Positions 1-22,755 of a DNA stretch of 32,000 nt are shown in pieces (position 1 is the stretch's first letter; each line of letters starts with the position of its first letter). The stretch is from Erysipelothrix larvae (lineage in GTDB: Bacteria; Bacillota_I; Bacilli_A; Erysipelotrichales; Erysipelotrichaceae). The stretch is from contig NZ_CP013213.1 of the NCBI RefSeq assembly GCF_001545095.1, forward strand, positions 1,620,001 to 1,652,000, written 5' to 3'. Made by a program: the position numbers and the translations under genes. The notes under the pieces are model-generated. The model was given only the letters and a program-made list of their open reading frames with translations. It was not told the DNA's origin and searched no databases.

Positions 1-1098
1 AACCTCCTTGATTCGTTTAATGATAATATCTAAGTCATTTTTATGCTGAAGGGGTCTTGGATCAAAACTGATCATCCCCTGATTTGCATCATAATTACGT
101 GTGAAGATTTGTGGTGTTCCTTTTTCGAGACGATGGATTATTTCGTGTGCACTTATTCCTAAGATTTGTGCATCAAAGTGAACTTTAGCCCGATATATGT
201 CCCGTCCTGATTCGTCTTTGATTTTTTGCGCATAAACACCGTTGATGGTATTCAGTGTCTCAATGAATGGATCCAAATCATCATAAGATACCTCAAAGTT
301 TTGTGATGAAGTGGTATATTCATAGGCTGCTTGAATCAATCCAAAGATGTTTTCTTTACCAATCTTCATCCCACGTCCAACACCATAGATGTGTTTTCTT
401 AGGTTGATTGCATCATCCTGTGATTGAACCAACACAAAACCTGAAGTGGGTCCCATCAATGCCTTTGAGCCACTATAGATGACATAGTCAATCCCCATTT
501 TCGTAAATGATGTGAAGTCAATTTCCGCTGCACAATCTAGAATTAATGGTTTTTTAAACTGTCGTGCGATGTCAAGCATTTCCTCAAGAGATAGCATATC
601 TTTTTGGACACAGTGTGAGCTTTTTACATACATCAGTGCCGCTGTTTTTTTATTGATACACAGCTCAACATCGCGTTGTGTACACTTATTTGCATAACCT
701 GCTTCAATAACACAACCCCCGCCTGTTTCTATCATGGTTTGTATTGGCGCGCCAAAGTCAACGTTGTGTCCTTTTGGAAGCACGATTTCATGTGGATAAT
801 CCTGCATGCTGGAATCGTGAATCTTTTGAATTTGTGCGTCATGATCTTTACATAAAACCGCCGCTACACTTAAACTGATCCCTGCGGATGCACTTGAGGT
901 AATAACTGCATCGGGTGCATCAAAGAGTGATGCCAAGGTTTCGCCGGAAATTTTGTATAGATCATCCATTAAAAAGTAGTTTGAAGCGCCATAGTTCATG
1001 GCGTCTTTCACACCGTGTGATTGTGTTGAGACTCCTAATTTTGTCATCCGTCCGGATGCATTAATGCACCCATTTATCTTGTCCATTAGATAGACCAT
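1..1098 (-). CDS. SelA-like PLP-dependent enzyme, DgaE-type (putative amino-sugar-acid-phosphate ammonia-lyase); the 3' end runs off the window
   Basis: My own minus-strand translation is open from the ATG at 1098-1096 to the window edge. It is absent from the ORF track because it is truncated. GGAGGT (1105-1110) lies 6 nt upstream, and the ATG overlaps the upstream stop as TAATG. The N-terminus MVYLMDKINGCINASGRMTKLGVS and the motif YSGSKALMGPTSG (PLP-lysine type) resemble the SelA/DgaE family. Confidence 0.75.
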   Translation of the reverse strand, partial: MVYLMDKINGCINASGRMTKLGVSTQSHGVKDAMNYGASNYFLMDDLYKISGETLASLFDAPDAVITSSASAGISLSVAAVLCKDHDAQIQKIHDSSMQDYPHEIVLPKGHNVDFGAPIQTMIETGGGCVIEAGYANKCTQRDVELCINKKTAALMYVKSSHCVQKDMLSLEEMLDIARQFKKPLILDCAAEIDFTSFTKMGIDYVIYSGSKALMGPTSGFVLVQSQDDAINLRKHIYGVGRGMKIGKENIFGLIQAAYEYTTSSQNFEVSYDDLDPFIETLNTINGVYAQKIKDESGRDIYRAKVHFDAQILGISAHEIIHRLEKGTPQIFTRNYDANQGMISFDPRPLQHKNDLDIIIKRIKEV

Positions 1099-2207
1099 TA
1101 GTGTACCTCCGTATATACTCCTGAAATCATACAACCTTTTGGTGTAATTTGTTTGTGGATTTGGATGGATTCATTGTTGGAATCGACTGCAGTTGTATCT
1201 ACAGTTTCCACTTCAAAGAATGTTAGGTGTGCTTTCACACCGTCTTTTAGCATTCCAAACCCTTTAAGTTTCGCATTATTTGCAGCACCCAATGTCACAA
1301 GATGAACCACATTCTCAAGACTATAGCCCATATTTAGAAACTTCGTCATAACACCTGCTAAAGAACCGACCGGTGTTTCAACATTGTACTTATGAATGTC
1401 TGTGCTAATGCTATCGGGTTCAAAATTATTGGACATGGCTTGTTTCGCAATCGTGAAACTAAAGCTATCTTGACCGTGTCCAACATCGTATAGAACCCCT
1501 TCTTTGCGTTTATCAAGCACAAGGTCCTTGATATGCAAACCATCCAAGATATTGTTTGGTTTGCCATGGAAGCAATGGGTTAACACATCGTCTTCACGCA
1601 TTTGTTTGAGCACCTCATGAATGGTAGGTGGGTTGTTTCCAAAGTGAACCATAATGGGACGATTGGTTGTGTTTGACACTGTGTGCGCCTTAAGAAATGG
1701 TGTCACAGTATCTTCGCCCATTACACTACCGGATGCTCGTACTTTGATGCCCACTACAAAATCATCATAGGCTTGAATCTTCGCAATTGTCGCATCAATA
1801 TCTACATTGTCAGGATCCTTCAGTTCAAAACGATCAATGAGTCCTGATTTCGCAATGTTGATCCATGCTTTCACAATTGTTTGTTTGTCTTTTACTTGAT
1901 TGTAGAATGTATCAATTGTATCCGATCCACTGGATCCTGCATCAATGACACAAACGACACCTGTTTTTACTCCGATACGGTCTGCTTCCACTCCTAAGTC
2001 TGTCGTATCTTGGAAACAATGCACATGGATATCAATCCAACCAGGGCTGACATAGCCCCCTTTTGCATCGATCACTGTGTCGAAATCTGTACATGGTTCT
2101 TGTGTGATGGATTCAATGACATCATCCTTCACAAGTATGTTTACTTGACACTTATGAAGTGGATGTGTTTGATCCACAAGAACACAGTTTGTGATGAGTG
2201 TGCGCAT
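1098..2207 (-). CDS. Amidohydrolase/deacetylase-family metallohydrolase (EF_0837/AHA_3915-like)
   Basis: 369-aa ORF with the HxH metal motif (WIDIHVHCF) near the N-terminus and a dihydroorotase/NagA-like length and layout. The start ATG overlaps the upstream stop (TAATG, 2205-2209). Confidence 0.8.
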   Translation of the reverse strand: MRTLITNCVLVDQTHPLHKCQVNILVKDDVIESITQEPCTDFDTVIDAKGGYVSPGWIDIHVHCFQDTTDLGVEADRIGVKTGVVCVIDAGSSGSDTIDTFYNQVKDKQTIVKAWINIAKSGLIDRFELKDPDNVDIDATIAKIQAYDDFVVGIKVRASGSVMGEDTVTPFLKAHTVSNTTNRPIMVHFGNNPPTIHEVLKQMREDDVLTHCFHGKPNNILDGLHIKDLVLDKRKEGVLYDVGHGQDSFSFTIAKQAMSNNFEPDSISTDIHKYNVETPVGSLAGVMTKFLNMGYSLENVVHLVTLGAANNAKLKGFGMLKDGVKAHLTFFEVETVDTTAVDSNNESIQIHKQITPKGCMISGVYTEVH

Positions 2208-2869
2208 TAGCTTACAACAGGGAGTGGAATACCAACGAGTACATTGAATGCAGCCATAATAATCGCACCTAAGATTGCACCCCCAACAATTGGTTTGTGA
2301 ATCTTATAGAAGACCAGTGAACCAATGACAGAGCCAATCCCAATAAATGGTCCATAGGCAACTGCACTCAGGATTACAAGAGGCCCTAATGCGTCTCCGG
2401 TTTTATTTCCAGCACCGATCATGATTGAAGTTGCTGTTCCTAAGGAGTTTGTGGGTGTAAACTTACGAATCAAAATAATGAGTGCACCAATACTCCCGCC
2501 AATCACAAACCCAGATAAGATTGCGAGGATAAAACTATCAATTAAAAATCCCATATTAGAAGTCAGTAAGATTGCTGGAATCCCAACACCAATACCGGTC
2601 ATTAAGGATCCCCCAATATCTAAAATTCCGACAAGTGGCCCTTCAAGAATGCGGGCAATCAGAAATGCAGAAGAGAATGCGAGTGCAGCATCATAGGCAC
2701 CTGTACTCTTTCCTTGATCTAAAAACTCCGCAATATAGATCTCGTTTGTGAGTCCTACGCCATGTGTTAAATACATACTTGTAGCCCCAACAACACCAGC
2801 TGATGCCAGTGCGAGCAGTAAAATAAAGGCGATATCTTTTTCTAAGAATGCTTCAAATTTTTCTTTCAT
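2207..2869 (-). CDS. Polytopic membrane protein, DUF4310-like (EF_0833-type)
   Basis: 220-aa ORF, extremely Gly/Ile/Ala/Leu-rich, with about 6 hydrophobic spans. SD AAAGGAGA lies about 9 nt upstream. The family name is assigned from memory of gene order and composition, not by search. Confidence 0.65.
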   Translation of the reverse strand: MKEKFEAFLEKDIAFILLLALASAGVVGATSMYLTHGVGLTNEIYIAEFLDQGKSTGAYDAALAFSSAFLIARILEGPLVGILDIGGSLMTGIGVGIPAILLTSNMGFLIDSFILAILSGFVIGGSIGALIILIRKFTPTNSLGTATSIMIGAGNKTGDALGPLVILSAVAYGPFIGIGSVIGSLVFYKIHKPIVGGAILGAIIMAAFNVLVGIPLPVVS

Positions 2870-2886
2870 ACAGTGGGTCTCCTTTC

Positions 2887-3609
2887 TTAAAATAGACCAA
2901 GAATTGTCTTATGGAAGCCACGGAAGTACGCAATCATACAAATCATAATCACGATAACTGCAAGCATGAGTCTGAATGATTTGTCTTTCGTTCCTTTTTC
3001 TTGCGCTAAGGTTCCTGCAAGAATTCCAAAGATTATACCCGGTAGAGAGTTTCCAGATATCATCTGCATAACACCTGCAAGGACAAGTGCATAAGCACCA
3101 ACAGTTTGTCCAGCATCAAGTGCTGCCCATAGAAAGATCAGTGGCATCACGATGTTAATCATGTTGGTGGATGCAGGGGCCAAAATATTCCCCGCTACTT
3201 CCGCAATATTCTTGGGTACAAGACCTGATGCAGTTGTTAAGAAAACAAAGACACTGGCACCAATTATTGCACCAACAATAAGATTTGAACTGATGGTTTT
3301 CGTGTAGTCCTTTTTCTTATTTAAGTTGATAACAGCTGCAGTCCAGTTTGGAATCACACGGTGTAAGATATCTTGTGTTAATGCCCCTGTTCCGATTGCT
3401 GAAGCAGCAGAAGTAATAAAGAATCCAAGACCAAAGGAGAAGTGTGAAACAGAGTCTCCATTACATGCATTCATTTCTCCTAATGTTCTAAATGCTCCCA
3501 TCCCTTGTATTTCAGGGGCTCTAAACATACGTGCAGCACCCGCAGCGATTGCGCCACCTGATAGTGCACCGACGATAATTGCTTTTATAATAATTTCAAA
3601 CTCTATCAT
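2887..3609 (-). CDS. Polytopic membrane protein, DUF4311-like (EF_0832-type)
   Basis: 240-aa Gly/Ala/Ile-rich ORF with multiple hydrophobic spans. Its ATG directly abuts the TAA of the upstream gene, and its SD (AGGAGG) is embedded in the last codons (I-G-G-E) of that gene. Confidence 0.65.
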   Translation of the reverse strand: MIEFEIIIKAIIVGALSGGAIAAGAARMFRAPEIQGMGAFRTLGEMNACNGDSVSHFSFGLGFFITSAASAIGTGALTQDILHRVIPNWTAAVINLNKKKDYTKTISSNLIVGAIIGASVFVFLTTASGLVPKNIAEVAGNILAPASTNMINIVMPLIFLWAALDAGQTVGAYALVLAGVMQMISGNSLPGIIFGILAGTLAQEKGTKDKSFRLMLAVIVIMICMIAYFRGFHKTILGLF

Positions 3610-3903
3610 TTACTCGCCTCCTATATTTAAGTATTTGACTGTTAAGTGAATGTTCAATTCAAGTGCGTATGAATCCACAATCCGTTTAAAAAAGAAATAT
3701 AAGAACGCTTCCTTCGCTTGCGTTTTTTGAATGTTCTTAACTTCAATTGCATCAGCACTCACACTGATAATTGGATCTTTAATCAGCGTTTGCAGTTCAA
3801 GGCGCATTGACTTAAACGCATCTTCAACAGCACTGTGTTGGGATGCTCCATGTCCTTTGACATGCATCACTAAGTGATCTTCAACAAGATGATTATGAGT
3901 CAT
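3610..3903 (-). CDS. Small soluble protein, DUF4312-like (EF_0831-type)
   Basis: 97-aa ORF with no hydrophobic span. It overlaps the upstream SFCGS gene by 11 nt and has no strong SD, so translational coupling is likely. The family call rests on position in the conserved cluster. Confidence 0.55.
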   Translation of the reverse strand: MTHNHLVEDHLVMHVKGHGASQHSAVEDAFKSMRLELQTLIKDPIISVSADAIEVKNIQKTQAKEAFLYFFFKRIVDSYALELNIHLTVKYLNIGGE

Positions 3904-4255
3904 TTCGTTTGATCCAAGCTTTCGCTAAATCACTTCCTAAAGATTCAGTATCCATAAATCCAAAGCCCAATACTTCGACGCCTTCATTGATTGCGGTAAC
4001 GCCTGCTTCATTGGTTCTTAAGTGATGTTTTGCTTTGTAACCATATTTGTTACTTGCAGTAATTGCTCCAGCTCCCCCTGACCCACAAAATGAGATACCA
4101 AAGTCAGCGTTGTGTTCCTTCATTGCATCGCCAAGCTTCATGTCTGCTGCCATTCCTTCAACTACAATAGCAGTTCCCCCAGCATCTTCAATGCCTTTGG
4201 CAGTATTTTGACCTTTTCCCATACGGTGTCCAATAACTACGATTGGTCGTTTCAT
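3893..4255 (-). CDS. SFCGS-family glycine-rich protein (EF_0830-type)
   Basis: 120-aa ORF containing the literal motif G-I-S-F-C-G-S-G-G-A-G. The SFCGS codons sit at 4079-4093, with Cys TGT at 4085-4087. An ATGA overlaps the upstream PRD gene. Confidence 0.8.
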   Translation of the reverse strand: MKRPIVVIGHRMGKGQNTAKGIEDAGGTAIVVEGMAADMKLGDAMKEHNADFGISFCGSGGAGAITASNKYGYKAKHHLRTNEAGVTAINEGVEVLGFGFMDTESLGSDLAKAWIKRNDS

Positions 4256-4602
4256 TTGTCCACCTCCTTTCTATTTTTCGCAAAGTAAATCGCAAATAAA
4301 TACGTTTCAAAATCTGTAATATCATAGTCCTTAAGCAGTTTGTGTGTCTTAAATAATTCTTTTGACACATCAATACACTCCTGAGGAATTTCTCCTGTAT
4401 CTTCAAACTCAAGATCATTTTGTGCGTGATTGTATACACGCTCTACAAGTGATAAATAATGATTCCAAAACAAGATATCATCGAGGATTTCTTGATTGAA
4501 GTTCAAGGTTTCAATTGCATCTTCCATCGTTTTGATTTCTTGATGCAAGGTGTCAATATTCGCGAAATATTGTCTTAACTCTTCGTGTAAGGTCTGTTTC
4601 AT
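4252..4602 (-). CDS. Stand-alone PRD-domain protein (EF_0829-type), no DNA-binding domain
   Basis: 116-aa acidic ORF that looks helical, with ATGA overlaps on both sides (4599-4602 and 4252-4255). Its position and size match the small PRD protein of this conserved cluster. Confidence 0.6.
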   Translation of the reverse strand: MKQTLHEELRQYFANIDTLHQEIKTMEDAIETLNFNQEILDDILFWNHYLSLVERVYNHAQNDLEFEDTGEIPQECIDVSKELFKTHKLLKDYDITDFETYLFAIYFAKNRKEVDK

Positions 4603-6485
4603 TGTCCGTCTTTCCTTTCAATAATATAATCAAAAAAACTCATTCGTTCTTGGATATTTAAAAGCACGCCCAGTTCTTGTTCAATCAAATCAAAGACTTG
4701 TTCAAATTGAATATAGACAACGTTGTGATTGGTTTCAATGTCATCCAGTGCTTTCATAACAAACGCGTCATGGACTTCTTTTGATTCGATCCAACGGGGT
4801 ATAGCGAGGATACAGTGAATTAAGATGCCCAGTATTTTTTGATCGTTGACTCCATATTTTTCATCCAATGACATTAATACATCCAAAATATTCAAGATTA
4901 CCGATGAGAGTTTTTCAACGCTGATATAGGTATTTGCATTGGAAGCTTGAAATTGCTTCTCAAGAAATTCGCCCAAGCTTTGTTTGGATGTATTTGGCAT
5001 CACACGCGATACAATGCCATAATTCAATAGGCGTTGAATTTGCTCGATATCTTTAATATTTAAGAGCTGGGTTACATGAATCACCGGAATCGAAATGTCT
5101 TTGACAGGAATGGTAGAGATGATAAAGTCAGCATCTTGATACCGTTTCTTATTCAACATTTGATTGATGGTTAAGGTTCCCAAAACTTCAATTTGGGGAA
5201 ATACATGCTTAATCCGTGTTTCAAGAAGTTTGGATACCCCTCGACTTGAAGCACAGGCAACATACACCTTTGGATGGTTTAATTCCGGTTTTTTCAACCA
5301 GTTCTTGTAAAGATAAATTGCGATAAAACTGAGTTCATCTTCACTGACTGCATACGCATAGGGTGATTTTTGAATCACGTTTTCATTAATCCGTTTTGCC
5401 AGTTCAAATTGTTCTGCATGCTGTTGTTTAACTTGGTTAAGCAGTGGATTAAAGTCTTTGGCTAATACGACGCGCTGTCTTTTGATTGAACCGTTGATAT
5501 GCTTGCGCAAGTCATCAGCAAGCGGTAGTGGGTCAATTGGATAATTATGGTGGATCAGATACTCAATAATCTCATCCACTAAGATATGACTCACATGCGA
5601 CGTATTCCCTTCTTCACTAATTACCACAATCCCCTCATCAACAAGAAACGAAATAAACCCCCATACTTCTGATTCCTCATGACATGTCGTAAATAAGTGT
5701 TCAAAAAGAAACTCACAATAGTGACGTTCTGATTTAAATGCAACGTGATCGAATGTTTGTGAACCGTTATCTCTAAATCCTAAATTGATCCGAATCTCAA
5801 GTGTTATAATTGCTGAGATTAGTTTCATAAATGAGTGTTGGCTTAGCCACACATGAAATTGATGATTCACACGGTCTAGGATTAAAATAATCACTTTGAA
5901 TCGCTCTGGGCTGACTTGTTGTTTAATCTGCTTTGGCAACACATCATAATAGTCCAAAAGATTGTAGTGCGTGCTGATGGTTTCCATGATCTTCTCAGTC
6001 ATCAAGATGCGCAGTTGATGTTCCAATCCCACAATCATATATCCCATATTACTGGCCTCAATCACACACCCTGATGCCTTAATGTCTTCATTAATCTCAT
6101 GGACACATTTTGAGGTTGATGATTCACTGATGTATACACTGTGAGCAAGTTGGGTTAAACTTAGGGGTCTTCGCTGAACAAGTAAGGTTAATATAATCGT
6201 ATTTTTACGAAAGGTTCGCTCATCAATTTCTTCTTCGGATAGGTCAAAAGCGAAGATTGAAGAGAGTTTTGACTTGTCACGGTTTAACACCGTATACCCA
6301 ACCCCACTTTTCACAATCAGTTCAACATCAATTTCAGCCAAGATCTCTTTAACTTGTGCCATATCATATCGAATCGTACGAAGGCTCACATTCAATGACG
6401 AACACAACATTTCAGTACTGATCGGTGTGACTGAATAGTAGAGCTTCTTAATAATGTTCATATGTCTTTTCTTGATGGTGCGCAT
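4599..6485 (-). CDS. BglG/MtlR-class PRD-containing transcriptional regulator with an EIIB(type 2)-like domain
   Basis: 628-aa ORF. It has an N-terminal wHTH-like segment (LCSSLNVSLRTIRYDMAQVKEIL) and PRD-like segments. An EIIB-2-like segment reads HPKVYVACASSRGVSKLLETRIKHVFPQIEV...DADFIISTIPV. A C-terminal PRD-like stretch reads ILGILIHCILAIPRW. SD GAGG lies about 9 nt upstream of the ATG at 6485. Confidence 0.8.
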   Translation of the reverse strand: MRTIKKRHMNIIKKLYYSVTPISTEMLCSSLNVSLRTIRYDMAQVKEILAEIDVELIVKSGVGYTVLNRDKSKLSSIFAFDLSEEEIDERTFRKNTIILTLLVQRRPLSLTQLAHSVYISESSTSKCVHEINEDIKASGCVIEASNMGYMIVGLEHQLRILMTEKIMETISTHYNLLDYYDVLPKQIKQQVSPERFKVIILILDRVNHQFHVWLSQHSFMKLISAIITLEIRINLGFRDNGSQTFDHVAFKSERHYCEFLFEHLFTTCHEESEVWGFISFLVDEGIVVISEEGNTSHVSHILVDEIIEYLIHHNYPIDPLPLADDLRKHINGSIKRQRVVLAKDFNPLLNQVKQQHAEQFELAKRINENVIQKSPYAYAVSEDELSFIAIYLYKNWLKKPELNHPKVYVACASSRGVSKLLETRIKHVFPQIEVLGTLTINQMLNKKRYQDADFIISTIPVKDISIPVIHVTQLLNIKDIEQIQRLLNYGIVSRVMPNTSKQSLGEFLEKQFQASNANTYISVEKLSSVILNILDVLMSLDEKYGVNDQKILGILIHCILAIPRWIESKEVHDAFVMKALDDIETNHNVVYIQFEQVFDLIEQELGVLLNIQERMSFFDYIIERKDGQ

Positions 6486-6618
6486 ACAGATTACCTCTTC
6501 TATAGTGTATCAACCCAAACATTACGTGCATTTCTTTAGTTTGCACTTTACTAAATATAAGGTGCAAAAATTCTTTGAATTGATGCATTTTTTAAATTCT
6601 TACATCATTTATGGTGAC

Positions 6619-6647
6619 ATTATACCAACCACACAGTAAGAATATAA
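6619..6647 (-). promoter_or_regulatory. Candidate sigmaA promoter of the PRD-regulator operon (extended -10)
   Basis: The minus strand reads TGgTATAAT (plus 6619-6627), with a weak -35 TTATAT 17 nt upstream (plus 6642-6647). This would give a leader of about 125 nt. It is a pattern match only. Confidence 0.3.
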
Positions 6648-6810
6648 TGATAAAAATAGTTAGGGTAAAAGGTGCATTTATAGAGAATTAAATCAAATGT
6701 ATGATTGGCTTTTATTTAAGCATATTCAGTGCGTTTTCAACGCCTTGATTCAATGAATCTGTTGTGTAATTCTAATAATTTATGGGTAAAACCTGGTCTT
6801 ATAAGCAAAA

Positions 6811-6850
6811 TAAAAACAGATGTTTTTTTATAACATCTGCCAATTTTTTT
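6811..6850 (-). terminator. Intrinsic terminator downstream of the DUF1835-like gene
   Basis: Stem CAGATGTT (6817-6824) pairs with AACATCTG (6832-6839). It is flanked by an A-run and a T-run. On the minus strand the hairpin is followed by TTTTTATTTT. Confidence 0.6.
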
Positions 6851-6957
6851 AGATTTCATAGAATGTCTTGAATGGTTTGCATGCATTATGTTGACTTTAT
6901 CTATGATTACGCTAAAAATACCAAATCATGCCATTCATCATCCCCTACTATGTGAGG

Positions 6958-7752
6958 TTAAACTAATTCAATGATATCCATAAACGGTGAGTCATCAAAG
7001 GATACTTGAGCCTGTTTTTGAACAAGGCGAAACGTATGGGTTTCAAGATGATGTTGAATCCGATGAAAGAGCCAAACATCACGAATTCCTGGCATTTCAT
7101 TTCCAATTATGCGACCTATCAATTCTGCAATCGCAAACGGTCCTTCTGGTGTCCATTTATCAATTAAAAAATCATAGAAATCATCCCTTACAGACATCAA
7201 CATCCCATTGATAATCACTCTGAGGTTCGCATTTTCAGCTGCGAGTGTTTCCCACTGTTGCGCCATGACTTCTTTTGTCGATTCATTCAGTATTTCAGTG
7301 TGTCCGATCATATCATCAATTGATTCAACATTCACTTCGCGCCATGAACCATACGTAACATTATATTTTACATTGGTTTCAAGTCGATTAACTCTGAGTG
7401 TGTAGGATTGGTTTTGTAATACATAACAAAGATGATACAGACCACACCAAGTTTCTGGCGTATTATCCACCCATACTTGTAAGAGATCGTGCTGTCGGAT
7501 GTGTTTGAAGAGTTTTTCTCGCCCCTTAATGCGATCTGAAAACATTGCCTCTACATCTTCATCAGTGAATGAATAAATTGAAAAGAGTTCTTTGAGGCTA
7601 TTGAGTCGTTGGTTTGAATCAAATGTTTCGCTAATATCGCCTAAGTCTAAGAAATGTCCCAGTCCAATAATGTTCTCTGGATCTTTATTTGCATTTCGTG
7701 TTTTTATGGCAAGCGAAGCATGAAAACTATCATTAAATACAATATCTAACAT
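6958..7752 (-). CDS. DUF1835-like protein (uncharacterized)
   Basis: The ORF-track frame is 6958..7758 and starts at a GTG. The SD GGAGG (plus 7760-7764) is only 1 nt from that GTG but 7 nt from the in-frame ATG at 7752. That ATG gives MLDIVFNDSFHASL, which resembles the N-termini of DUF1835 proteins as I recall them. Confidence 0.5.
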   Translation of the reverse strand: MLDIVFNDSFHASLAIKTRNANKDPENIIGLGHFLDLGDISETFDSNQRLNSLKELFSIYSFTDEDVEAMFSDRIKGREKLFKHIRQHDLLQVWVDNTPETWCGLYHLCYVLQNQSYTLRVNRLETNVKYNVTYGSWREVNVESIDDMIGHTEILNESTKEVMAQQWETLAAENANLRVIINGMLMSVRDDFYDFLIDKWTPEGPFAIAELIGRIIGNEMPGIRDVWLFHRIQHHLETHTFRLVQKQAQVSFDDSPFMDIIELV

Positions 7753-7856
7753 GTCCACCCCTCCTTTGTCTCATTATATCATATGAGCACACGCAATATA
7801 ATAGGAGCTTAACAATCCGTTAAGCCCTTACAGGTTATGAGCACAAGTGATCCAAC

Positions 7857-7881
7857 AAAAAAAGGGTGAGCCCCTTTTTTT
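7857..7881 (-). terminator. Intrinsic terminator after the first HAD gene
   Basis: The sequence is A7-GGG-TGAG-CCCC-T7, a short GC stem with flanking A/T runs. It begins 6 nt after the TAG at 7887-7889. Confidence 0.55.
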
Positions 7882-7886
7882 CGTTT

Positions 7887-8708
7887 CTAGTTTAGAATGT
7901 ATTGTGCTACAAAATCAGCAAACCCATCTTCTTCGTTGGTAAGTTGAGTAATGTAGTCGGCGATTGCTTTTGTATCATCCGTTCCATTTTTTAAACACAC
8001 TCCAATACCACTGGCTTCTAGCATATCGTTGTCATTCGATGTATCTCCAAAGGCAGCAACGTGTTCGATTGCAATCCCGCGCATCTCGCAAAATTTATGC
8101 AGTGCATAAGCTTTTGAGACTTTTCGATTAGCAAACTCAATCAGTGTTGGTTGTGTTTTGAATGCTTTATAGTGTTCAAGATTCAAGGCTTCAAAGTGTG
8201 CTTCAACTTCTGCCATTTTGTTTTCATCCAGTCTAAACATGACTTTTCCATTATCTTCTTCATACAGTTCAGAAATATCTTCGACAACAATCACATCTTT
8301 ATGAGCATGTTGAGCAGACTTACTGATTTGTAAATTATCCTCAACACATTTAATCACACCGTGTGAATAAATATATGGTTCTTGACTGAATGGTTTCATG
8401 AGATCAATGATTTCCTTGATCCATTCTTTTTTTAAAATGTAGTAATCGTATTGTTTTTGTGTTTGTAAATCAAAGAGTTCTGCTCCGTTCATGCCGATAT
8501 AGCAATCTGCTTCAAATCCTAAATCCCAATTGTGAACCGTTCTTGATACCTCATCAACGGGTCTTCCTGAGGCAATACCAAATAAAATCCCCTGCTTATT
8601 CATTGCTTGGAGTATTTCCTTTGTTTTCGGGGTTAAATCACGTGCTTCATTAACGATTGTTCCGTCAATATCAGCAATTATAAACTTTACTTCTGTGAGT
8701 CGTTCCAT
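7887..8708 (-). CDS. Cof-type HAD-IIB family hydrolase (sugar phosphatase-like)
   Basis: HAD motif I is FIIADIDGT. Motifs III/IV are GDTSNDNDMLEASG. I place the start at ATG 8708 (MERLTEVK, with AAAGGA upstream) rather than the longer track ORF that runs to 8771. Confidence 0.8.
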   Translation of the reverse strand: MERLTEVKFIIADIDGTIVNEARDLTPKTKEILQAMNKQGILFGIASGRPVDEVSRTVHNWDLGFEADCYIGMNGAELFDLQTQKQYDYYILKKEWIKEIIDLMKPFSQEPYIYSHGVIKCVEDNLQISKSAQHAHKDVIVVEDISELYEEDNGKVMFRLDENKMAEVEAHFEALNLEHYKAFKTQPTLIEFANRKVSKAYALHKFCEMRGIAIEHVAAFGDTSNDNDMLEASGIGVCLKNGTDDTKAIADYITQLTNEEDGFADFVAQYILN

Positions 8709-8928
8709 CAACTTAAATCCTTTCTTGCGTGTCTTTATTGTCTTTATTTTACCACATTCAAAACAAATCAAAGATTATCTGAAAATAAGTATCATCACGA
8801 ATCAAAAGTTGGTGGATTTTATGGGTTTTTACCTTTCGAATTTGTATAAAAACCGTCTATATCAAAAAGAAATCAGCAAAATATGGTATTAATTTTCATG
8901 GTAATCTCAAATGAAGACCGTGTGTTTA

Positions 8929-9705
8929 TTAGATAAGATTATGGTTCATACAGTATTGGTAAATACCCTCTTGATCGACCGGTTCACATACATCATCTGC
9001 GATGGCTTTAACATTATCCGTAGCATTACCCATCGCAACACCGACCCCAACTGCTTGGAGCATTTCTACATCGTTGGTACCATCACCAAAGGCCATTGAT
9101 TCCTGGGTTGTTAGGTTAAAATAGTTCAATATTTCGCGAACACCCACTGCTTTACTGCCACCCTTAGGAATGACATCTACTGCACAATCCCACCATGCAG
9201 TAATTTGAGCTCCCTCTACGTCTTTGAGTAAATCATCGTATTGGTGTGGATCTAGTCCTAACATAATTTGATAGATGTCTTCTTGGATCATTGCATCAAA
9301 ATCCTCAGCGATATCAACGGTTTGTTCTGATATTGCATAGTAGTCAATCAGCGCTTGGTCACGGCCATTTGCTCCACTTTTATGGATAGTCGCAACTGAA
9401 ACGGGGCGATTAATTGCCTGAGCATTCTCTACAATTTTTAAAACATCTGTTTTTGGAATGGGTTGATGGTATATGATGTCAGTTTCTGTTGAACAATATG
9501 ACCCATTGAACGTGAGATAAGCATCAAATTGGATATTATCAAAACGTGGTACTTTAGATAACGGTCTTCCCGTTGCGATGCATAGTTTGATTCCATTGGC
9601 TTGAAGTTTTAATAGTGCCTCTTCTGTTTTTGGTGACATTGTTTTTGTATGGATGTCGATTAATGTCCCATCGACATCAAAAAAGATAATTTTTATGTTC
9701 TGCAT
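8929..9705 (-). CDS. Cof-type HAD-IIB family hydrolase
   Basis: 258-aa ORF with the motifs IFFDVDGTL, ATGRP and GDGTNDVEMLQAVG. Confidence 0.85.
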   Translation of the reverse strand: MQNIKIIFFDVDGTLIDIHTKTMSPKTEEALLKLQANGIKLCIATGRPLSKVPRFDNIQFDAYLTFNGSYCSTETDIIYHQPIPKTDVLKIVENAQAINRPVSVATIHKSGANGRDQALIDYYAISEQTVDIAEDFDAMIQEDIYQIMLGLDPHQYDDLLKDVEGAQITAWWDCAVDVIPKGGSKAVGVREILNYFNLTTQESMAFGDGTNDVEMLQAVGVGVAMGNATDNVKAIADDVCEPVDQEGIYQYCMNHNLI

Positions 9706-9757
9706 AATACCCTGTACACATATATTAATCCATGTGTCCTTTCATTTATCCATTATA

Positions 9758-10612
9758 TCATTGTTGCATGCAATATTTTTTAATCGCTTCAACTTGGTCC
9801 ATTGTTTCAGTGTAACCAACGTCATAGAGTGCTTTAAGTTTTTGATTGTTGGTTTCAAACCGAGATACTTCAACGGGTTTTGAAGGTGCAATGATATACA
9901 CATCATCATGAGCTTGATCATTTTTGAGTTTATCACGAACCGTATTATATGCTTGATAGCGTGAGTTTATGGTATCCATCAGGTGTGGGTATCCATGATA
10001 AAAAAGTTTCGTGATGGCTTTCTCTGCGTGTGATGGTGCTTTCTTATGATAGGTTTCATCTTGTGTAAGCACCACAACAATGCGATCATACCCCAGTTCG
10101 CGCGCTCTGATGTAAGGAATTGGATCACCAATTCCGCCGTCTAAATAAAGATGATTTCCAATTGGAACCATCTTAGATAGATAAGGGACACTTGCAGTTG
10201 CGACAATACGATCAAATGCTTCGCGTGTTGGCTTCGCATGATATTCTGGCTTGCCTGTGTGTGTATTTGTAATGACACAATCAAACTGTGCATCACTGGT
10301 AATATATGCATCATAATCGAGTGGATATTTTGCTTCAACTGCTTGACTCATGAGAAATCCAATATTGAAGTATGACTTGTTTTTTAATAGACTTGAAAAG
10401 CCTCGGTATCGTTTATCATGGAGAAATTCTTGATTTAAACGTACCGTTCGACCGTGTTGTTTTGAAAGATAACTGATGGCACATAATGCACCACCTGATA
10501 CACCACATACATAATCAAACTCAATATTTGCTTCAAGGAGCGCATCTAAAACGCCCATTGTATAAAAGGTTCTCAGTGCACCACCTTCAAGCACTAATGC
10601 TGTTTTACTCAT
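9758..10612 (-). CDS. Patatin-like phospholipase family protein
   Basis: 284-aa ORF with an oxyanion-hole motif LEGGALRT, a nucleophile-elbow motif G-V-S-G-G and the catalytic Asp motif LDGGIGD. SD GGAG lies 5 nt upstream. Confidence 0.85.
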   Translation of the reverse strand: MSKTALVLEGGALRTFYTMGVLDALLEANIEFDYVCGVSGGALCAISYLSKQHGRTVRLNQEFLHDKRYRGFSSLLKNKSYFNIGFLMSQAVEAKYPLDYDAYITSDAQFDCVITNTHTGKPEYHAKPTREAFDRIVATASVPYLSKMVPIGNHLYLDGGIGDPIPYIRARELGYDRIVVVLTQDETYHKKAPSHAEKAITKLFYHGYPHLMDTINSRYQAYNTVRDKLKNDQAHDDVYIIAPSKPVEVSRFETNNQKLKALYDVGYTETMDQVEAIKKYCMQQ

Positions 10613-14635: not shown

Positions 14636-15916
14636 TTAATTGTTTGAAGCTTCTTGTTCGATTTCCAACATATCTTGTTTATTTGCAACATATACAAATG
14701 GAAGATAGATACAAATCATCACAACTAAGTTAAATGCAGCGAGTAATCCGCCTCTCCAACTTGCAGTAGCAAGTAGCCCACCGATAACTGGCGGTGTTAC
14801 CCAAGCAGTTACAACGGTACATACAGGTACAAGTCCTGAAGATGTTGCGAAGTATGCAATTGCAGCAAGAACAACTGGTCCAAATACATAAGGAATAAAG
14901 TAAATTGGATTTAAGACAATTGGAAGTCCAAATGTAAGGGGTTCGTTGATATTAAAGATACCAGGACCAATACTTAAACTTGCCATCGTCATCATCTTCT
15001 TATTCTTACGTCCAATGATAAACATTGCGATGAGTAAGGCGATTGTTGCGCCTGTACCACCCATATTTACAAATGAATCAAAGAATGGTTTATTTACAAT
15101 ATTTTCTGCTGCTTTTCCAGCTGCGATTGCGGCGTTATTTGCTTCAATTGCTGGAGCATTAATCAATTGCATCACTGGGTCGATCATATTCGCACCGTGA
15201 ATACCAAAGAACCAAAGGAATGTTGGTACAACTGCTAGAATCAATGCAGCAGGTAGTGTTGAAGATAATCCCATGAATGGTTTTTGGAAGTTTTCATAGA
15301 ATACTTCGACTACATTTGGAATTCCAACTCTTACAAGAATTGTTGTGATAAGACCAACTGCAACGATAACAAGCATCATTGGTATCATACTGTTAAATGA
15401 AGAAGCAACGCCTGCTGGAACACCCTCTGGCATAGTAATCTTCAACTTATCAATACTGCTGAGTACTTTGAGTAATTCAACAGAAAGTAATGCAACAATA
15501 ATTGCGATAAATAGACCACTTGAACTTACACCAGCCATACCACCAATTGTTGCGAATGAAGCAAGTGAGGTAGCACCCGCTGTTTTCCCATTCATTCCAT
15601 ATGAAGTGCCTAGGTTATCACCAATTAGATATGCCATAAAGAGTGACATAATTCCAAAGGTTCCGTTCCAAACATTTCCGCCAAGATTTTTCCAAATATG
15701 AGACCCATCTTCGAGTGTATATGCGAAGATGCTATTCATAAGGTTTTGGAATGCTTCAATTGGTAAATTATTAATTGCTACAACGAGCGCTCCGATAATC
15801 ATCAGTGGCATTATGGTCGTGAAGGCATCTCTTATGGCAAGCAAATGTCTTTGATTTCCTACCTTGTTCGCGATTGGAAGTAATGCATCTCCCATTTTAT
15901 CCATAAAACTATTCAT
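14636..15916 (-). CDS. PTS EIIC component, lactose/cellobiose (Lac) family
   Basis: 426-aa polytopic ORF. The N-terminus MDKMGDALLPIANKVGNQRHLLAIRDAF is typical of CelB/LicC-type EIIC. SD AAGGAGAAAAAGGAG lies upstream. Confidence 0.9.
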   Translation of the reverse strand: MNSFMDKMGDALLPIANKVGNQRHLLAIRDAFTTIMPLMIIGALVVAINNLPIEAFQNLMNSIFAYTLEDGSHIWKNLGGNVWNGTFGIMSLFMAYLIGDNLGTSYGMNGKTAGATSLASFATIGGMAGVSSSGLFIAIIVALLSVELLKVLSSIDKLKITMPEGVPAGVASSFNSMIPMMLVIVAVGLITTILVRVGIPNVVEVFYENFQKPFMGLSSTLPAALILAVVPTFLWFFGIHGANMIDPVMQLINAPAIEANNAAIAAGKAAENIVNKPFFDSFVNMGGTGATIALLIAMFIIGRKNKKMMTMASLSIGPGIFNINEPLTFGLPIVLNPIYFIPYVFGPVVLAAIAYFATSSGLVPVCTVVTAWVTPPVIGGLLATASWRGGLLAAFNLVVMICIYLPFVYVANKQDMLEIEQEASNN

Positions 15917-19488: not shown

Positions 19489-22400
19489 TCATGATTTATC
19501 TGCTTTTTCTTTCTTCTTTGAAAGATGACTGAAACTAAGCAAAATCATTCCAAATGATAAAATATAGAATCCGAATCTATCATTTTCTACACCAGTACTT
19601 GGAAGTACATCTTTATGAGGTCGATCGCCTGTATTAGGAAGGTTTGGTGTTATTGTCTCTGTTTTTCTTCTTACGTCTAGTGTGTTCACCAAATCAAATC
19701 CATCTTGACTACCTTGATAGTTATCAACAAGCACTTCTTTTACAGTATAGATTACTTCTTCTCCATTGATATATTTTGGAAGGTTACTGAAAGTATATGT
19801 CCATACATTCTTATCTTTTACCCATGTTGGTTCGATATTTGTAACAACCTGATTATTCGCAAATAAGATTAACTGAATTGAATCCGGTCTGTACCCCTCT
19901 TTATTATCATTATCCACCCATGTTTTCGTTCCACTCACTTCTGTGTAAGATGTGATTCGGGTATTGGTGATGTCATACCCTTTTTGTGTCATCACATAAC
20001 CTGCGACTGGCACTTCTTCTACAGTATACTTAATTTCTGCACCGTTTTGATATTGTGGTAGGTTCTCATAAGTATAAGACCAAAGGTTGTCACTTACTTT
20101 TGTCCATGTTGGCGTAACCCCTTGAACAACTTCATTGTTGGCTTTTAAAATAAGTTCGATCGTATTGGGTCTGAAACCTTCTCTATTATTATCATCCACC
20201 CATGTTTTCGTTCCACTCACTTCTGTGTAAGATGTGATTCGGGTATTTGTGATATCATACCCTTTTTGTGTCATCACATAACCTGCGACTGGCACTTCTT
20301 CTACAGTGTACTTAATTTCTGCACCGTTTTGATATTTCAATAAGTTTTCATATGTATATGACCAAACGTTGTCACTTACTTTTGTCCATGTTGGCGTAAC
20401 CCCTTCAACTACTTCATCATTACCTTTTAAAATGAGTTCGATCGCATCCGGTCTGAAACCTTCTTGATTGTTATCATCCACCCATGTTTTCGTTCCACTT
20501 ACTGTAACAAGTTGTTTTTCATTGAGGAAATCACCCAGATTAATTACATCCGTATTATTATAATCTTCTTCAAGAATGAAGGTTATTTTATGATCACTTA
20601 ATTGATAGCCGATTGGTGCTTTTTCTTCAACAACTTGATATGCCCCTGCATCAAGATATGTAACACGAACCATTCCATCACTACTCGAAATAAGTGCATC
20701 AGTGCCTTTACCATCATATGCATAGTATTCTATTCCGTTGACGATTGTTTTTGTAAAGCCCTCTACCTTTTCCATGTTACCTTGGCAAAGGTTATCGGAG
20801 CATTTGTAAAGTGCAAACTGAGCATCCTGAAGGGTCAATTGAGTGTTGTCTGCATCTGTTTTTCTCCACACGACTGTTCTTGGAACATTCGTAACTGTGA
20901 TGTATGATATATCATATTTTGATGTGGTGAAGCTTATTTTTTCATTTCCTGACTTCGTTTGATAAAATCCATCGGGTGATGCTTCTTCGACTAAATAATA
21001 GTTTCCGGTAGCAAGCCCATTGAGTATCAGACTTCCATCCATTCCAGTTTTAACTAATGCAAGTTGTCCTTGTGGAGAATAAACATATTTCCCACCTGAA
21101 TAATTAAATAAAATTGGCGTATTATCACTTGCTTTATATACTCTGAAATGTACGTCTTTAATATAATGTGAGGCGATTTCTTGATTTGTACCACTTTCAT
21201 ATAGTTTATTTGCTTTATAAATAACTGCATCACCGATTGTTGGTTTAGCAACAATGTACGCTTTCCAGAAGTTATCTTTTTCAGCAGAATAATCTCCGTC
21301 TTTATCGGTCCCTTTGATGATGACTGTATTTTTTACTTTCACTGCATTCAAAGTATCGATATCCTTATACTTAACAGCTGTAACTACTTTGAGTGAAAAA
21401 TTATAAACATATGGACCAATATATCGGTTTGAATCATTCTTTTCAGTGTAATAGTCTACGGACTGATTGTAAATGCTCGCCATTTCCTTCCATTCTAAAA
21501 AGGTATGACTCTCTTCGTAATCACCAGATACTACATCGCTATCATTTCGACCCATAGCTGTCCCGTATTCAACAATGCCATTAACGTATTCCTGTGATTT
21601 GATAAGACTATTGACAAACTGAACATATCCATCATATCTTAAATCCGTGTAACGAAGTCCTGTTGAACCTGGTGCACCAAAATTCATGATAACCCGTTCA
21701 CGAGTCTTTCCTTGGTTATCTGGGTCTTGTTCAGTAATTAATGCAAACGATAATGGCTGTGAACGTACTGCAAGTTCAACATCAGATACTGATTTTCCTT
21801 CACTGGTTATTTCTGTGAAATAATCAAACATGTTATATTGAAACCAGCTTTTATATTGAATAATCTTGCCATTCTCATCATGTTTGTCTGAATACAAATA
21901 GAATGGTATATCAATGAAGATCTTTTTACTTCCAGATTCACTTGTGAATGATAAATTTGAATCAAGGACTTCTTCTATTATGAGGTCTTCATACTTTGCA
22001 TCTGCATATTTTGATTCATAGTCTTTAAATTGGTTTCCAAGATGATTGTTTACATCAACATTCCAAGTTATAGTATAATCAATTGTGCTAATAGAACTTA
22101 CTGCTTTATTGTTTTTTGGTTCATCTGTTGGTTTAATCACACCTTTAATTGTCTCTGAAGAAGGTTTTAAATCAACGGTTACGTTAACAAGTGTTTCATC
22201 ACCATATGAGTACTCAACAGTTTCACCATTTGCAATCCCTGAATAGGATGCACCTCCATCAAGACCACCAGATATATTATCTTTTCCTTCAATATTTTCA
22301 TTAAATGTAATGACATATACTAACTTAGAAGTTGTATCATCGATTTTAACAACCTTCAGTTGACCAATTGCGAAGACCACATTACCATCCGTTAATTGGC

Positions 22401-22755
22401 GGATTTGTGATAAATTTTTAAACCCTGCATTTTCAACTCCCTTGACCGTTAAAATATCAAACTCGATATAATCACCTGATAAATAATTGTCGTAATTTGA
22501 ATCAATTGCAGACCATCGTAAATCAAAGTATAGATTATGCGTTCCAGAATTATAACTGAAATCATCAACGCTGATTACTCCGTTATCATTATGAACTTTT
22601 TTCCCTGCAACACTAATATTAATAGAATCAATTTTAAAATCATTTGTTACATTATTTCCTGTAATTGGTGTTTCCTCATTTTCAGCAAACACATAATTAT
22701 TACCCACGATTATCATCAACAAACATAAGAATGCAACAAGCATCTTTTTAATCAT
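19489..22755 (-). CDS. LPXTG-anchored surface adhesin (collagen-adhesin-like N-terminal region, 2 SpaA/prealbumin-like domains, 3 CnaB-type repeats)
   Basis: 1088-aa ORF with a signal peptide (MIKKMLVAFLCLLMIIVGNNYVFA/ENE). GNYYLVEEASPDGF and GAYQVVEEKAPIGY are SpaA-type motifs. Three VSGTKTWVDDNN-type repeats are present. The C-terminus is LPSTG + hydrophobic span + KKKEKADKS. SD GGGAGG lies 8 nt upstream. Confidence 0.9.
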   Translation of the reverse strand: MIKKMLVAFLCLLMIIVGNNYVFAENEETPITGNNVTNDFKIDSINISVAGKKVHNDNGVISVDDFSYNSGTHNLYFDLRWSAIDSNYDNYLSGDYIEFDILTVKGVENAGFKNLSQIRQLTDGNVVFAIGQLKVVKIDDTTSKLVYVITFNENIEGKDNISGGLDGGASYSGIANGETVEYSYGDETLVNVTVDLKPSSETIKGVIKPTDEPKNNKAVSSISTIDYTITWNVDVNNHLGNQFKDYESKYADAKYEDLIIEEVLDSNLSFTSESGSKKIFIDIPFYLYSDKHDENGKIIQYKSWFQYNMFDYFTEITSEGKSVSDVELAVRSQPLSFALITEQDPDNQGKTRERVIMNFGAPGSTGLRYTDLRYDGYVQFVNSLIKSQEYVNGIVEYGTAMGRNDSDVVSGDYEESHTFLEWKEMASIYNQSVDYYTEKNDSNRYIGPYVYNFSLKVVTAVKYKDIDTLNAVKVKNTVIIKGTDKDGDYSAEKDNFWKAYIVAKPTIGDAVIYKANKLYESGTNQEIASHYIKDVHFRVYKASDNTPILFNYSGGKYVYSPQGQLALVKTGMDGSLILNGLATGNYYLVEEASPDGFYQTKSGNEKISFTTSKYDISYITVTNVPRTVVWRKTDADNTQLTLQDAQFALYKCSDNLCQGNMEKVEGFTKTIVNGIEYYAYDGKGTDALISSSDGMVRVTYLDAGAYQVVEEKAPIGYQLSDHKITFILEEDYNNTDVINLGDFLNEKQLVTVSGTKTWVDDNNQEGFRPDAIELILKGNDEVVEGVTPTWTKVSDNVWSYTYENLLKYQNGAEIKYTVEEVPVAGYVMTQKGYDITNTRITSYTEVSGTKTWVDDNNREGFRPNTIELILKANNEVVQGVTPTWTKVSDNLWSYTYENLPQYQNGAEIKYTVEEVPVAGYVMTQKGYDITNTRITSYTEVSGTKTWVDNDNKEGYRPDSIQLILFANNQVVTNIEPTWVKDKNVWTYTFSNLPKYINGEEVIYTVKEVLVDNYQGSQDGFDLVNTLDVRRKTETITPNLPNTGDRPHKDVLPSTGVENDRFGFYILSFGMILLSFSHLSKKKEKADKS
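19681..20505 (-). repeat. Tandem coding repeat, 282-bp period: 2 near-identical copies plus 1 diverged 261-bp copy (CnaB-type domains)
   Basis: The string CCACCCATGTTTTCGTTCCACT recurs at 19914, 20196 and 20478, exactly 282 bp apart. The encoded 94-aa units (aa 751-844 and 845-938) differ at 9 positions. The third unit (aa 939-1025) is diverged. Confidence 0.9.

Follow-up and report, generated by a model that had tools for sequence, protein, structure and literature searches.

Within a 32,000-nucleotide stretch of Erysipelothrix larvae DNA (contig NZ_CP013213.1, positions 1,620,001 to 1,652,000; the whole of this stretch is referred to here as the window), the open reading frame (ORF) listing and its translations revealed eight consecutive, co-directional genes on the minus strand, running from position 6485 down to position 1. 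They encode a PRD-type regulator, a five-protein core (a stand-alone PRD-domain protein, the glycine-rich SFCGS protein and the DUF4312, DUF4311 and DUF4310 proteins), an amidohydrolase and a lyase. On L001, a longer public-run contig that includes the sequence to the left of position 1, a gene for 2-keto-3-deoxy-6-phosphogluconate (KDGP) aldolase directly follows the lyase gene, so that the operon has nine genes and not eight. The families were assigned by scanning the window proteins with the hidden Markov models (HMMs) of Pfam and NCBIfam/TIGRFAM, and the resulting features are given below in the order in which they are read.

6486..6957, minus strand: control region (sequence reading and hairpin search)
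4599..6485, minus strand: regulator, 628 aa, with HTH_11, Mga-HTH (helix-turn-helix), PRD and EIIB(Gat)-like domains
4252..4602, minus strand: stand-alone PRD-domain protein, 116 aa, EF_0829/AHA_3910 family (alignment with syntenic homologues)
3893..4255, minus strand: SFCGS glycine-rich protein, 120 aa (PF14272, TIGR03577)
3610..3903, minus strand: DUF4312 protein, 97 aa (PF14189)
2887..3609, minus strand: DUF4311 integral membrane protein, 240 aa, putative permease subunit 1 (PF14188)
2207..2869, minus strand: DUF4310 integral membrane protein, 220 aa, putative permease subunit 2 (PF14187)
1098..2207, minus strand: amidohydrolase/deacetylase-family metallohydrolase, 369 aa, cog3964, EF_0837 type (PRK09237)
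1..1098, minus strand: DgaE-family ammonia-lyase dependent on pyridoxal 5′-phosphate (PLP), partial at the window edge (TIGR01437)
L001 13656-14348, outside the window: KDGP aldolase (PF07071), the ninth gene, directly after the lyase

The genes are tightly joined. Two junctions are 4-nt ATGA overlaps (4599-4602 and 4252-4255), one is an 11-nt overlap (3893-3903) and two are 1-nt TAATG overlaps (2205-2209 and 1096-1100), while one stop/start pair abuts (3610/3609) and a single gap of 17 nt is left at 2870-2886. Six of the eight starts have a Shine-Dalgarno-like site ahead of them; the amidohydrolase gene has none and that of the DUF4312 gene is weak, a pattern that fits translational coupling. 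The window edge cuts the lyase gene, with 366 of its approximately 373 residues inside and the last seven codons and the stop outside (the end lies 23 nt past the edge), and a gene caller run on the same contig placed an alternative lyase start 12 nt further on, at window 1086, where the second ATG lies. An earlier note on this DNA, made from the letters and translations, had described eight minus-strand genes with the regulator first and had listed their junctions, and the ORFs and translations agree with it exactly; the KDPG/KDGP-type aldolase gene that it predicted just past the left edge is the PF07071 gene found there on L001.

A hairpin search located a terminator-like hairpin at 6815-6841 that belongs to the preceding gene and closes it, so that the operon has its own control region of 470 bp. 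This region contains an extended -10-like element, TGgTATAAT (6619-6627), and a palindrome, TTTGCAC-N15-GTGCAAA, at 6540-6568, approximately 55 nt upstream of the regulator start. The form TTGCAC-N13-17-GTGCAA recurs directly in front of the regulator gene in four further genera (L002 1271-1295, L003 7102-7127, L007 7152-7177 and L008 7089-7113) and nowhere else in 85 loci, and related TGCAA half-sites are present in further leaders. The palindrome makes a good candidate for the operator at which the PRD activator would act, and the -10-like element is a putative promoter. That the palindrome is conserved in front of the regulator gene lends support to an operon that encodes its own activator and is under its control; the operon would thus be autoregulated. 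A riboswitch or antiterminator RNA was also considered for the leader and rejected, as no Rfam element was found in window 1-9000. Within the same leader, GTGCATTT and AAGGTGCA recur at 6526-6533, 6672-6679, 6556-6566 and 6666-6676.

To place the operon among its relatives, DUF4311 was scanned for in 185,579 species genomes (one genome per species), which yielded 359 confirmed relatives, and gene neighbourhoods were compared in 80 fetched loci besides that of the window; locus counts are hereafter given out of these 81. The DUF4311 protein of the window is 100% identical to Erysipelothrix larvae AOC36_07565, and relatives of the cluster span Bacillota, Actinomycetota, Fusobacteriota and Pseudomonadota, including Enterococcus faecalis, Klebsiella pneumoniae and Aeromonas. 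Across the 80 fetched loci the core order PRD-SFCGS-DUF4312-DUF4311-DUF4310 is kept essentially everywhere with tight spacing. The amidohydrolase gene is found elsewhere either before the PRD protein (after the regulator) or after DUF4310, the lyase and aldolase genes are present in 72-78 loci and are sometimes detached from the core, and a PRD activator lies beside the core in 62-66 loci, the others having GntR/UTRA regulators instead. The PRD-only protein is nearly universal and remains where GntR-type regulators replace the PRD activator. Given this constant core order against shifting enzymes and regulators, the five-gene core behaves as one unit, with the enzymes and the regulator as exchangeable partners, and since the same genes are found together at 80 other loci in different genera, the arrangement lies far beyond chance.

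These comparisons bear on the earlier note. Its family assignments (SFCGS, DUF4312/4311/4310, amidohydrolase, DgaE-like lyase and regulator) were borne out by the HMM scans, and that of the PRD protein by its homologues; its placement of the genes in the EF_0829-EF_0839 / AHA_3910-3917 neighbourhood proved correct, with matches to TIGR03577, TIGR03578, TIGR03579, TIGR03580, TIGR03581 and TIGR03583, and to TIGR03582 by way of homologues; and the gene set does co-occur across genomes, a check that it had suggested, with the core order kept in the 80 further loci. Several TIGRFAM equivalog scores fall below their cut-offs (41 against 89.65 for DUF4312, 240 against 301 for DUF4311 and 190.6 against 215.45 for DUF4310), indicating that the window operon is a divergent copy of this neighbourhood; PF14189, PF14188 and PF14187 all score above gathering in the window proteins.

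Accessory genes vary from locus to locus. HAD phosphatases lie beside or within the cluster in approximately 24 loci, for example inside the L021 operon, and in the window two Cof-type HAD-IIB sugar-phosphatase genes (7887-8771 and 8929-9705) lie directly upstream on the same strand. PfkB genes resembling 2-keto-3-deoxygluconate (KDG) kinase are found inside five clusters. In three loci from Enterococcus and Pseudolactococcus (L028, L070 and L071), an EIIC gene of the Lac-family phosphoenolpyruvate (PEP)-dependent phosphotransferase system (PTS) and a glycosidase of the MupG-like 6-phospho-N-acetylmuramidase family are inserted between DUF4310 and the amidohydrolase gene, and the Klebsiella cluster adds a 6-phosphogluconolactonase-like gene (L085 13504-14658). 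The lactonase-like gene and the EIIC/glycosidase pair hint at lactone or disaccharide precursors. In two loci the amidohydrolase ORF is abnormally long (L023 7670-9187, 505 aa; L042 7596-9506, 636 aa), with PRD and SFCGS genes that are either absent or shifted in frame. The cause is probably frameshifts from the assembly of these metagenome-assembled genomes and not true gene fusion.

We rate the enzymes of the operon as ordinary members of known families. The lyase scores 437 bits against the 385-bit cut-off of TIGR01437 and 339.5 bits against the 600-bit cut-off of the DgaE equivalog NF047797, so that the "DgaE-like lyase" of the earlier note stands as a member of the DgaE family and not as DgaE proper. 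It aligns over its full length with Salmonella DgaE (7lc0; 8.8e-77, approximately 49% identity). In DgaE, His163 is the proton donor, Arg301, Arg332 and Arg346 hold the 6-phosphate of the substrate, and His162 has been proposed to contact the phosphate ester (PMC9529869). The equivalents of K213 (the PLP lysine), H163, R301, R332 and R346 are invariant in all 71 cluster lyases, and this conservation of both catalytic and phosphate-site residues points to a phosphorylated substrate. The residue equivalent to His162 is His in 70 of the 71 and Ser in the window copy only (residue 161, approximately 616-618), and the position equivalent to Arg226 varies among the cluster lyases.

The aldolase matches the DgaF-type KDPG-aldolase equivalog NF047796 (328.4 bits against a cut-off of 300) as well as TIGR03581, the EF_0839 family (331 against 222). 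Together, the phosphate site of the lyase and the DgaF-type aldolase fix the last two steps of the pathway: the lyase would turn a 2-amino-2-deoxy-aldonate 6-phosphate into KDGP or an epimer of it, and aldol cleavage would follow. The amidohydrolase reaches 378.7 bits against the 371-bit cut-off of PRK09237, scores 373.6 for TIGR03583, below the cut-off of 432.15, and has 8wzy, 2ics (EF0837), 2ogj and 8je0 as its PDB relatives. The presence of a cog3964 amidohydrolase in the operon implies an acylated precursor, and the 6-phosphogluconolactonase-like gene of Klebsiella fits an aldonate or lactone substrate. The substrate is thus likely to be an N-acylated amino-sugar acid. This fits the route put forward in the earlier note (import, probable phosphorylation, deacylation and deamination of such a compound), which is strengthened by the arginine site of the lyase and by the HPr/EI linkage described below.

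At the head of the operon, the regulator matches HTH_11 (2.5e-8), Mga (1.2e-10) and PRD (1.1e-8) and, weakly, PTS_IIB (0.0084), and its match to the NCBIfam AcpB/EbpR/MafR model falls below the cut-off. In the family alignment, H329, C411, H557 and R564 are nearly invariant, with C411 located in the EIIB(Gat)-like domain. Among the homologues, PRD was detected in all 42, PTS_IIB in 10 and PTS_EIIA_2 in one; the window copy is without EIIA, and the C-terminus of the family is a weakly PRD-like module at the place where EIIA would be. By its domain content, the regulator is a PRD activator of the MtlR/LicR/Mga class that does not carry an EIIA domain.

The 116-aa protein that follows is too divergent to match directly, and the Pfam and NCBIfam scans, TIGR03582 included, gave nothing for it. 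It is identified as a PRD protein by its alignment with syntenic homologues, which match TIGR03582 in 53 of 61 and PF00874 in 50 of 61 cases and in which H48, R55 and E99 are invariant. The profile of the family matches the stand-alone PRD structure 3nuf (1.5e-28) and LicT (1.2e-11). Fusion of the PRD protein to SFCGS in a single ORF of 248 aa was seen in two metagenome-assembled genomes of Erysipelotrichaceae, which came from buffalo rumen and goat jejunum, with PRD at residues 30-114 and SFCGS at residues 134-245 (L047 8916-9662; L060/L061 8903-9649). Both the PRD-only protein of the window ("AIYFAK") and the PRD of its regulator ("IAIYLY") have Tyr in place of the usual second phosphorylatable PRD His, a position at which most homologues of either protein keep His.

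SFCGS matches PF14272 (6.7e-53) and TIGR03577 (176.6 bits against a cut-off of 141.1), and its AlphaFold 2 (AF2) model has a pLDDT of 95.2. In a Foldseek search of the PDB with this model, the top 45 matches all belonged to the RpiB/LacAB family (best E 1.7e-6, TM 0.72), and no PTS EIIB was found among the top 50. The residues C57, R11, D38 and D102 are invariant, with C57 in a Cys57-Gly-Ser59-Gly loop; hhalign placed C57 on the catalytic C66 of E. coli RpiB and S59 on T68. The RpiB pair His99/Asn100 is not kept ("HN" aligns to "EG"). The hhalign match stops at RpiB residue 128 of 149, so that the C-terminal region of RpiB has no counterpart in SFCGS. That part of RpiB carries phosphate-binding arginines. 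Against Pfam LacAB_rpiB (PF02502), SFCGS scores 21.1 bits, below the gathering cut-off of 24.7. Across phyla its mean identity is approximately 64-69%, the full-length proteins forming about one cluster at 50% identity, and a profile search of 1.84 billion 50%-identity representatives reached no neighbouring family. Such high conservation is as expected of a hub protein. The possibility that SFCGS has a PTS EIIB fold was rejected, since only RpiB/LacAB proteins occupied the top 45 Foldseek places and hhalign detected no similarity to the EIIB-like domain of the regulator.

DUF4312 (PF14189, 2.8e-11) always lies between SFCGS and DUF4311, and no PDB sequence relative was found for it; it is soluble and poorly conserved and is probably a structural or accessory subunit. 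A role for it as an EIIA-like phosphocarrier was rejected, as none of its His, Cys or Asp residues is invariant, its mean identity is 26% and it has no PDB relative. DUF4311 (PF14188, 4.5e-73) was modelled by AF2 as all-helical (pLDDT 82.6) and is rich in invariant polar residues (R27, E45, N47, H56, Q79, D80, H83, R84, N88, D165 and N187), and searching the PDB by Foldseek with its model gave no match (the best had E 1.8, with TM not above 0.22). In DUF4310 (PF14187, 2.5e-67), R73, E76, D84, T91 and N155 are invariant, and its similarity to DUF4311 is weak (hhalign E 0.0028, probability 11%). Kinship of either membrane protein with known transporters, PTS EIIC/EIID or YhfT found no support in the Foldseek search with the DUF4311 model or in the sequence comparisons with YhfT. 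DUF4311 and DUF4310 would together form the permease.

If the lyase acts on a phosphorylated substrate, the source of the phosphate has to be considered. A PfkB kinase gene is present in only five of the 81 loci and none was found in the other 76, and most loci, that of the window included, encode no further transporter in the operon. HPr and/or Enzyme I (EI) genes lie co-directionally at the cluster border in seven loci, the HPr having an intact His15 motif. In Paenibacillus, L072 reads HPr-regulator-PRD-SFCGS-DUF4312-DUF4311-DUF4310, and L074 and L075 have the same arrangement with enzyme genes in front; L021 has aldolase-HAD-HPr, L023 aldolase-HPr, and HPr-EI and EI-HPr follow the cluster in L068 and L051, respectively. 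Every HPr gene in the 1.5 Mb of fetched loci lies at a cluster border. On a plasmid of Bartonella sp. HY406 (L084), the cluster is followed by a regulator with EIIA_2 and by an HPr-EI fusion of 671 aa (8047-10062), and no canonical EIIB or EIIC was found in the 11-kb stretch examined. DUF4311 is also present on a second Bartonella plasmid (H2). The core is tied to the PTS by several features, namely the PRD-type control, the PRD-only His protein within the core, the PRD-SFCGS fusion and the HPr/EI linkage.

We propose that the nine genes form a catabolic operon for N-acyl amino-sugar acids, in which the five-protein core is a PTS-fed device for uptake and phosphorylation under the control of a PRD activator, and we give this proposal an even chance of being right. 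Its own MtlR/Mga-type PRD activator would turn the operon on, and the substrate would be an N-acylated 2-amino-2-deoxy-aldonate, for example N-acetyl-D-glucosaminate, an epimer or a lactone. The PRD protein, SFCGS, DUF4312, DUF4311 and DUF4310 together would constitute an uptake machine wired to the PTS, into which phosphoryl groups from EI/HPr would enter at the invariant PRD-protein His, at the invariant SFCGS Cys or at both; phosphotransfer would thus run through one or both of these proteins, and the substrate would appear inside the cell as a 6-phosphate. The cog3964 amidohydrolase would then remove the acyl group, the DgaE-family lyase would yield KDGP or its galacto isomer by eliminating ammonia along with water, and the DgaF-type aldolase would cleave KDGP to pyruvate and glyceraldehyde-3-phosphate. 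A bolder form of the proposal sees in the core an unrecognised class of PEP-dependent sugar phosphotransferase permease for amino-sugar acids, with PRD(His) and RpiB-fold(Cys) proteins in the roles of EIIA and EIIB and a two-subunit membrane part, unlike any solved transporter, in those of EIIC and EIID. This form we hold only tentatively, as possible but short of an even chance.

Several observations weigh against these proposals. The Pfam and NCBIfam scans detected no match to a PTS EIIA, EIIB, EIIC or EIID model in the five core proteins, and the HPr/EI linkage was seen in just seven of the 81 loci and on the one annotated Bartonella plasmid. This linkage could serve solely to phosphorylate the PRD regulator, and the HPr-EI pair of L068 may be the general ptsHI operon next door. 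The KDG-kinase-like PfkB genes of five loci show that recruitment of an ATP kinase does occur at times. The fold of SFCGS is that of a sugar-phosphate isomerase and not of EIIB, with the Cys of the protein at the position of the catalytic base of RpiB; DUF4312 has no invariant residue at all in an alignment of 50 homologues (mean identity 26%); and DUF4311 was modelled as a monomer, though it is probably part of a hetero-oligomer. Finally, the sole biochemical study of cog3964 amidohydrolases reportedly found O-acetyl-mandelate esterase activity and not sugar deacetylation.

The rival explanation that survives best takes the five-gene module as a non-phosphorylating permease (DUF4311/DUF4310) with cytoplasmic accessory and sensor proteins. 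In this view the PRD protein and the PRD activator do no more than read the state of the PTS, to serve catabolite control and induction, and phosphorylation of the substrate or of KDG falls to an ATP kinase with its gene elsewhere. Such an arrangement would account for the KDG-kinase-like genes within five clusters, for a core that lacks an EIIA, EIIB or EIIC signature and for the isomerase fold of SFCGS. Moreover, it is standard biology for HPr to control PRD regulators, and this control alone could account for the linked HPr/EI genes. It is harder to reconcile with the lyases, every one of which retains the phosphate-binding Arg triad although 76 of the 81 loci have no kinase, or with the PRD-only protein, which is kept where GntR regulators replace the PRD activator and whose fusion partner is SFCGS, not the regulator. 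On the Bartonella plasmid, a dedicated HPr-EI would also be costly if it merely licensed a regulator. On balance, we consider this explanation unlikely, albeit one to be taken seriously.

A second rival assigns SFCGS to the pathway itself, as a Cys-dependent aldose-ketose isomerase or epimerase that acts on the imported phospho-sugar acid and is merely co-translated with the transporter. Its RpiB/LacAB fold and the conserved catalytic Cys and Thr/Ser of the CG(T/S)G loop are what such an enzyme would be expected to have, and members of the RpiB family do act on acidic sugars, with DhuI (4u8f) being among the Foldseek matches. The comparison weakens beyond the loop, however, as His99/Asn100 of RpiB are not kept, nothing matches RpiB past residue 128 and the LacAB_rpiB score stays under the gathering cut-off. 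The gene also holds a fixed place between the PRD protein and DUF4312, whereas true enzymes of the cluster shuffle, it is fused to a PRD domain in some genomes, and the deacylase-lyase-aldolase route requires no isomerisation. We therefore regard an enzymatic SFCGS as improbable. Less probable still is a core that is not a transporter but a membrane-bound enzyme or sensor complex, for example one signalling to the PRD activator, with uptake left to transporters elsewhere: the wealth of invariant polar residues in DUF4311, its lack of likeness to any solved transporter and the extra Lac-family EIIC of some Enterococcus and Pseudolactococcus clusters would suit it, but most loci, including that of the window, have no other transporter in the operon, and the core is kept alongside non-PRD regulators.

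Past the left edge of the window and convergent with the operon, L001 14500-18852 holds a second PTS operon with EIIC, EIIB, EIIA_2, an MtlR-like HTH-PRD-EIIA regulator and an Eda-type KDPG aldolase; its EIIC, a fructose-family protein of 351 aa, was matched by NCBIfam TIGR01427 and by no Pfam model. The rest of the window includes a Lac-family PTS EIIC gene (14636-15916), two GH1 6-phospho-beta-glucosidase-like genes, UvrC and MutS2, and at 19489-22755 a gene for a surface protein of 1088 aa with three Cna_B repeats and a SpaA-type domain; all this is ordinary context for a chromosome.

New in the present analysis are the ninth gene, the RpiB fold of SFCGS, a DUF4311 with no structural match, the invariant phosphate site of the lyase, the PRD-SFCGS fusion, the HPr/EI linkage and the palindrome. 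The PTS has been regarded as having a closed set of Enzyme II families; if the bolder form of our proposal is true, there would be a further family, built from unrelated folds, and the genome-based prediction of PTS substrates and of PRD signalling would change. Even a conservative reading provides a concrete, testable pathway for five families of "domain of unknown function" proteins. The nutrient class to which it points, oxidised products of chitin or glycans together with amino-sugar acids or the corresponding lactones, is one that gut and host-associated bacteria may exploit.

With respect to known systems, the EF_0829-EF_0839 / AHA_3910-AHA_3917 neighbourhood has the same families and the same core order, and the window operon is an orthologous copy of it. 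This neighbourhood has been defined by comparative genomics only; it is catalogued in TIGRFAMs, Pfam and NCBIfam and annotated accordingly in RefSeq, and the NCBI names of the Bartonella and Klebsiella copies are the same. Full-text literature searches recovered no functional study of DUF4310-4312, SFCGS or EF0829-EF0837, and no substrate, mechanism or phenotype for them, in agreement with the earlier note, which knew of no published characterisation; the one paper to mention the DUF4310-4312/SFCGS families lists them in a composite transposon of E. faecium, where a copy of the cluster is reported. Searches on the structures 8wzy, 8t7j and 8je0 likewise returned nothing functional.

The nearest characterised pathway is dgaABCDEF of Salmonella, with which the window operon has in common the residues of the DgaE-family lyase, the DgaF-type aldolase, the route through a 6-phosphate and the connection to the PTS. 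In place of the mannose-family PTS DgaABCD, however, the window operon has PRD, SFCGS, DUF4312, DUF4311 and DUF4310, and it differs further in its additional amidohydrolase, its PRD activator and the Ser at the His162 position of its lyase. The same chemical logic, in which deacetylation of an N-acetyl-amino-sugar acid is followed by deamination to a 2-keto-3-deoxy acid and by an aldolase, is found in the oxidative-chitin pathway for GlcNAc1A of marine Gammaproteobacteria, which uses the deacetylase OngB, the deaminase OngC, KdgK and KdgA (PMC9537276, PMC12017989). That route differs in remaining unphosphorylated until the KDG kinase, in using other transporters and in having no PRD or PTS link. 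OngB/OngC-type enzymes were considered for the window operon and rejected, OngB being a 489-aa protein of the D-aminoacylase type from a different amidohydrolase subgroup.

A likeness was also seen to the cryptic yhfZYXW-php-yhfUTS operon of E. coli. YhfY is homologous to the stand-alone PRD protein (hhalign probability 90%), and YhfU (DUF2620, 117 aa) carries a comparable Cys-x-(S/T)-G-x-G-A motif in the corresponding position, although its similarity to SFCGS is not significant. Both operons encode a membrane protein, an amidohydrolase-superfamily protein and a PLP enzyme; YhfT, however, is a single membrane protein of 434 aa with no detectable similarity to DUF4311 or DUF4310. YhfS was considered as a DgaE homologue and rejected, as it is not of the DgaE family. 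Literature searches on yhfT/U/Y found nothing functional.

At the level of single proteins, SFCGS shares its fold and the CG(T/S)G loop with RpiB/LacAB and is approximately 30 residues shorter, while the regulator shares HTH_11, Mga, PRD and the EIIB(Gat)-like Cys with the MtlR/LicR/Mga activators and differs from them in that 41 of the 42 members of its family have no EIIA. At the level of the system, the core resembles canonical PTS Enzyme II and the PTS-dependent dihydroxyacetone kinase DhaKLM in its PRD control, its HPr/EI linkage, its soluble proteins with an invariant Cys and an invariant His beside two membrane subunits, and its phosphorylated first intermediate. Unlike a canonical Enzyme II, it has no sequence or fold match to EIIA, EIIB, EIIC or EIID, and its Cys protein is RpiB-fold with the Cys after strand 3. 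DhaKLM provides a precedent for a PTS that feeds a phosphorylation device other than an Enzyme II. The transport and phosphorylation core of the window operon is probably a variant of PTS-type systems, one made up of folds that had not been linked to the PTS before.

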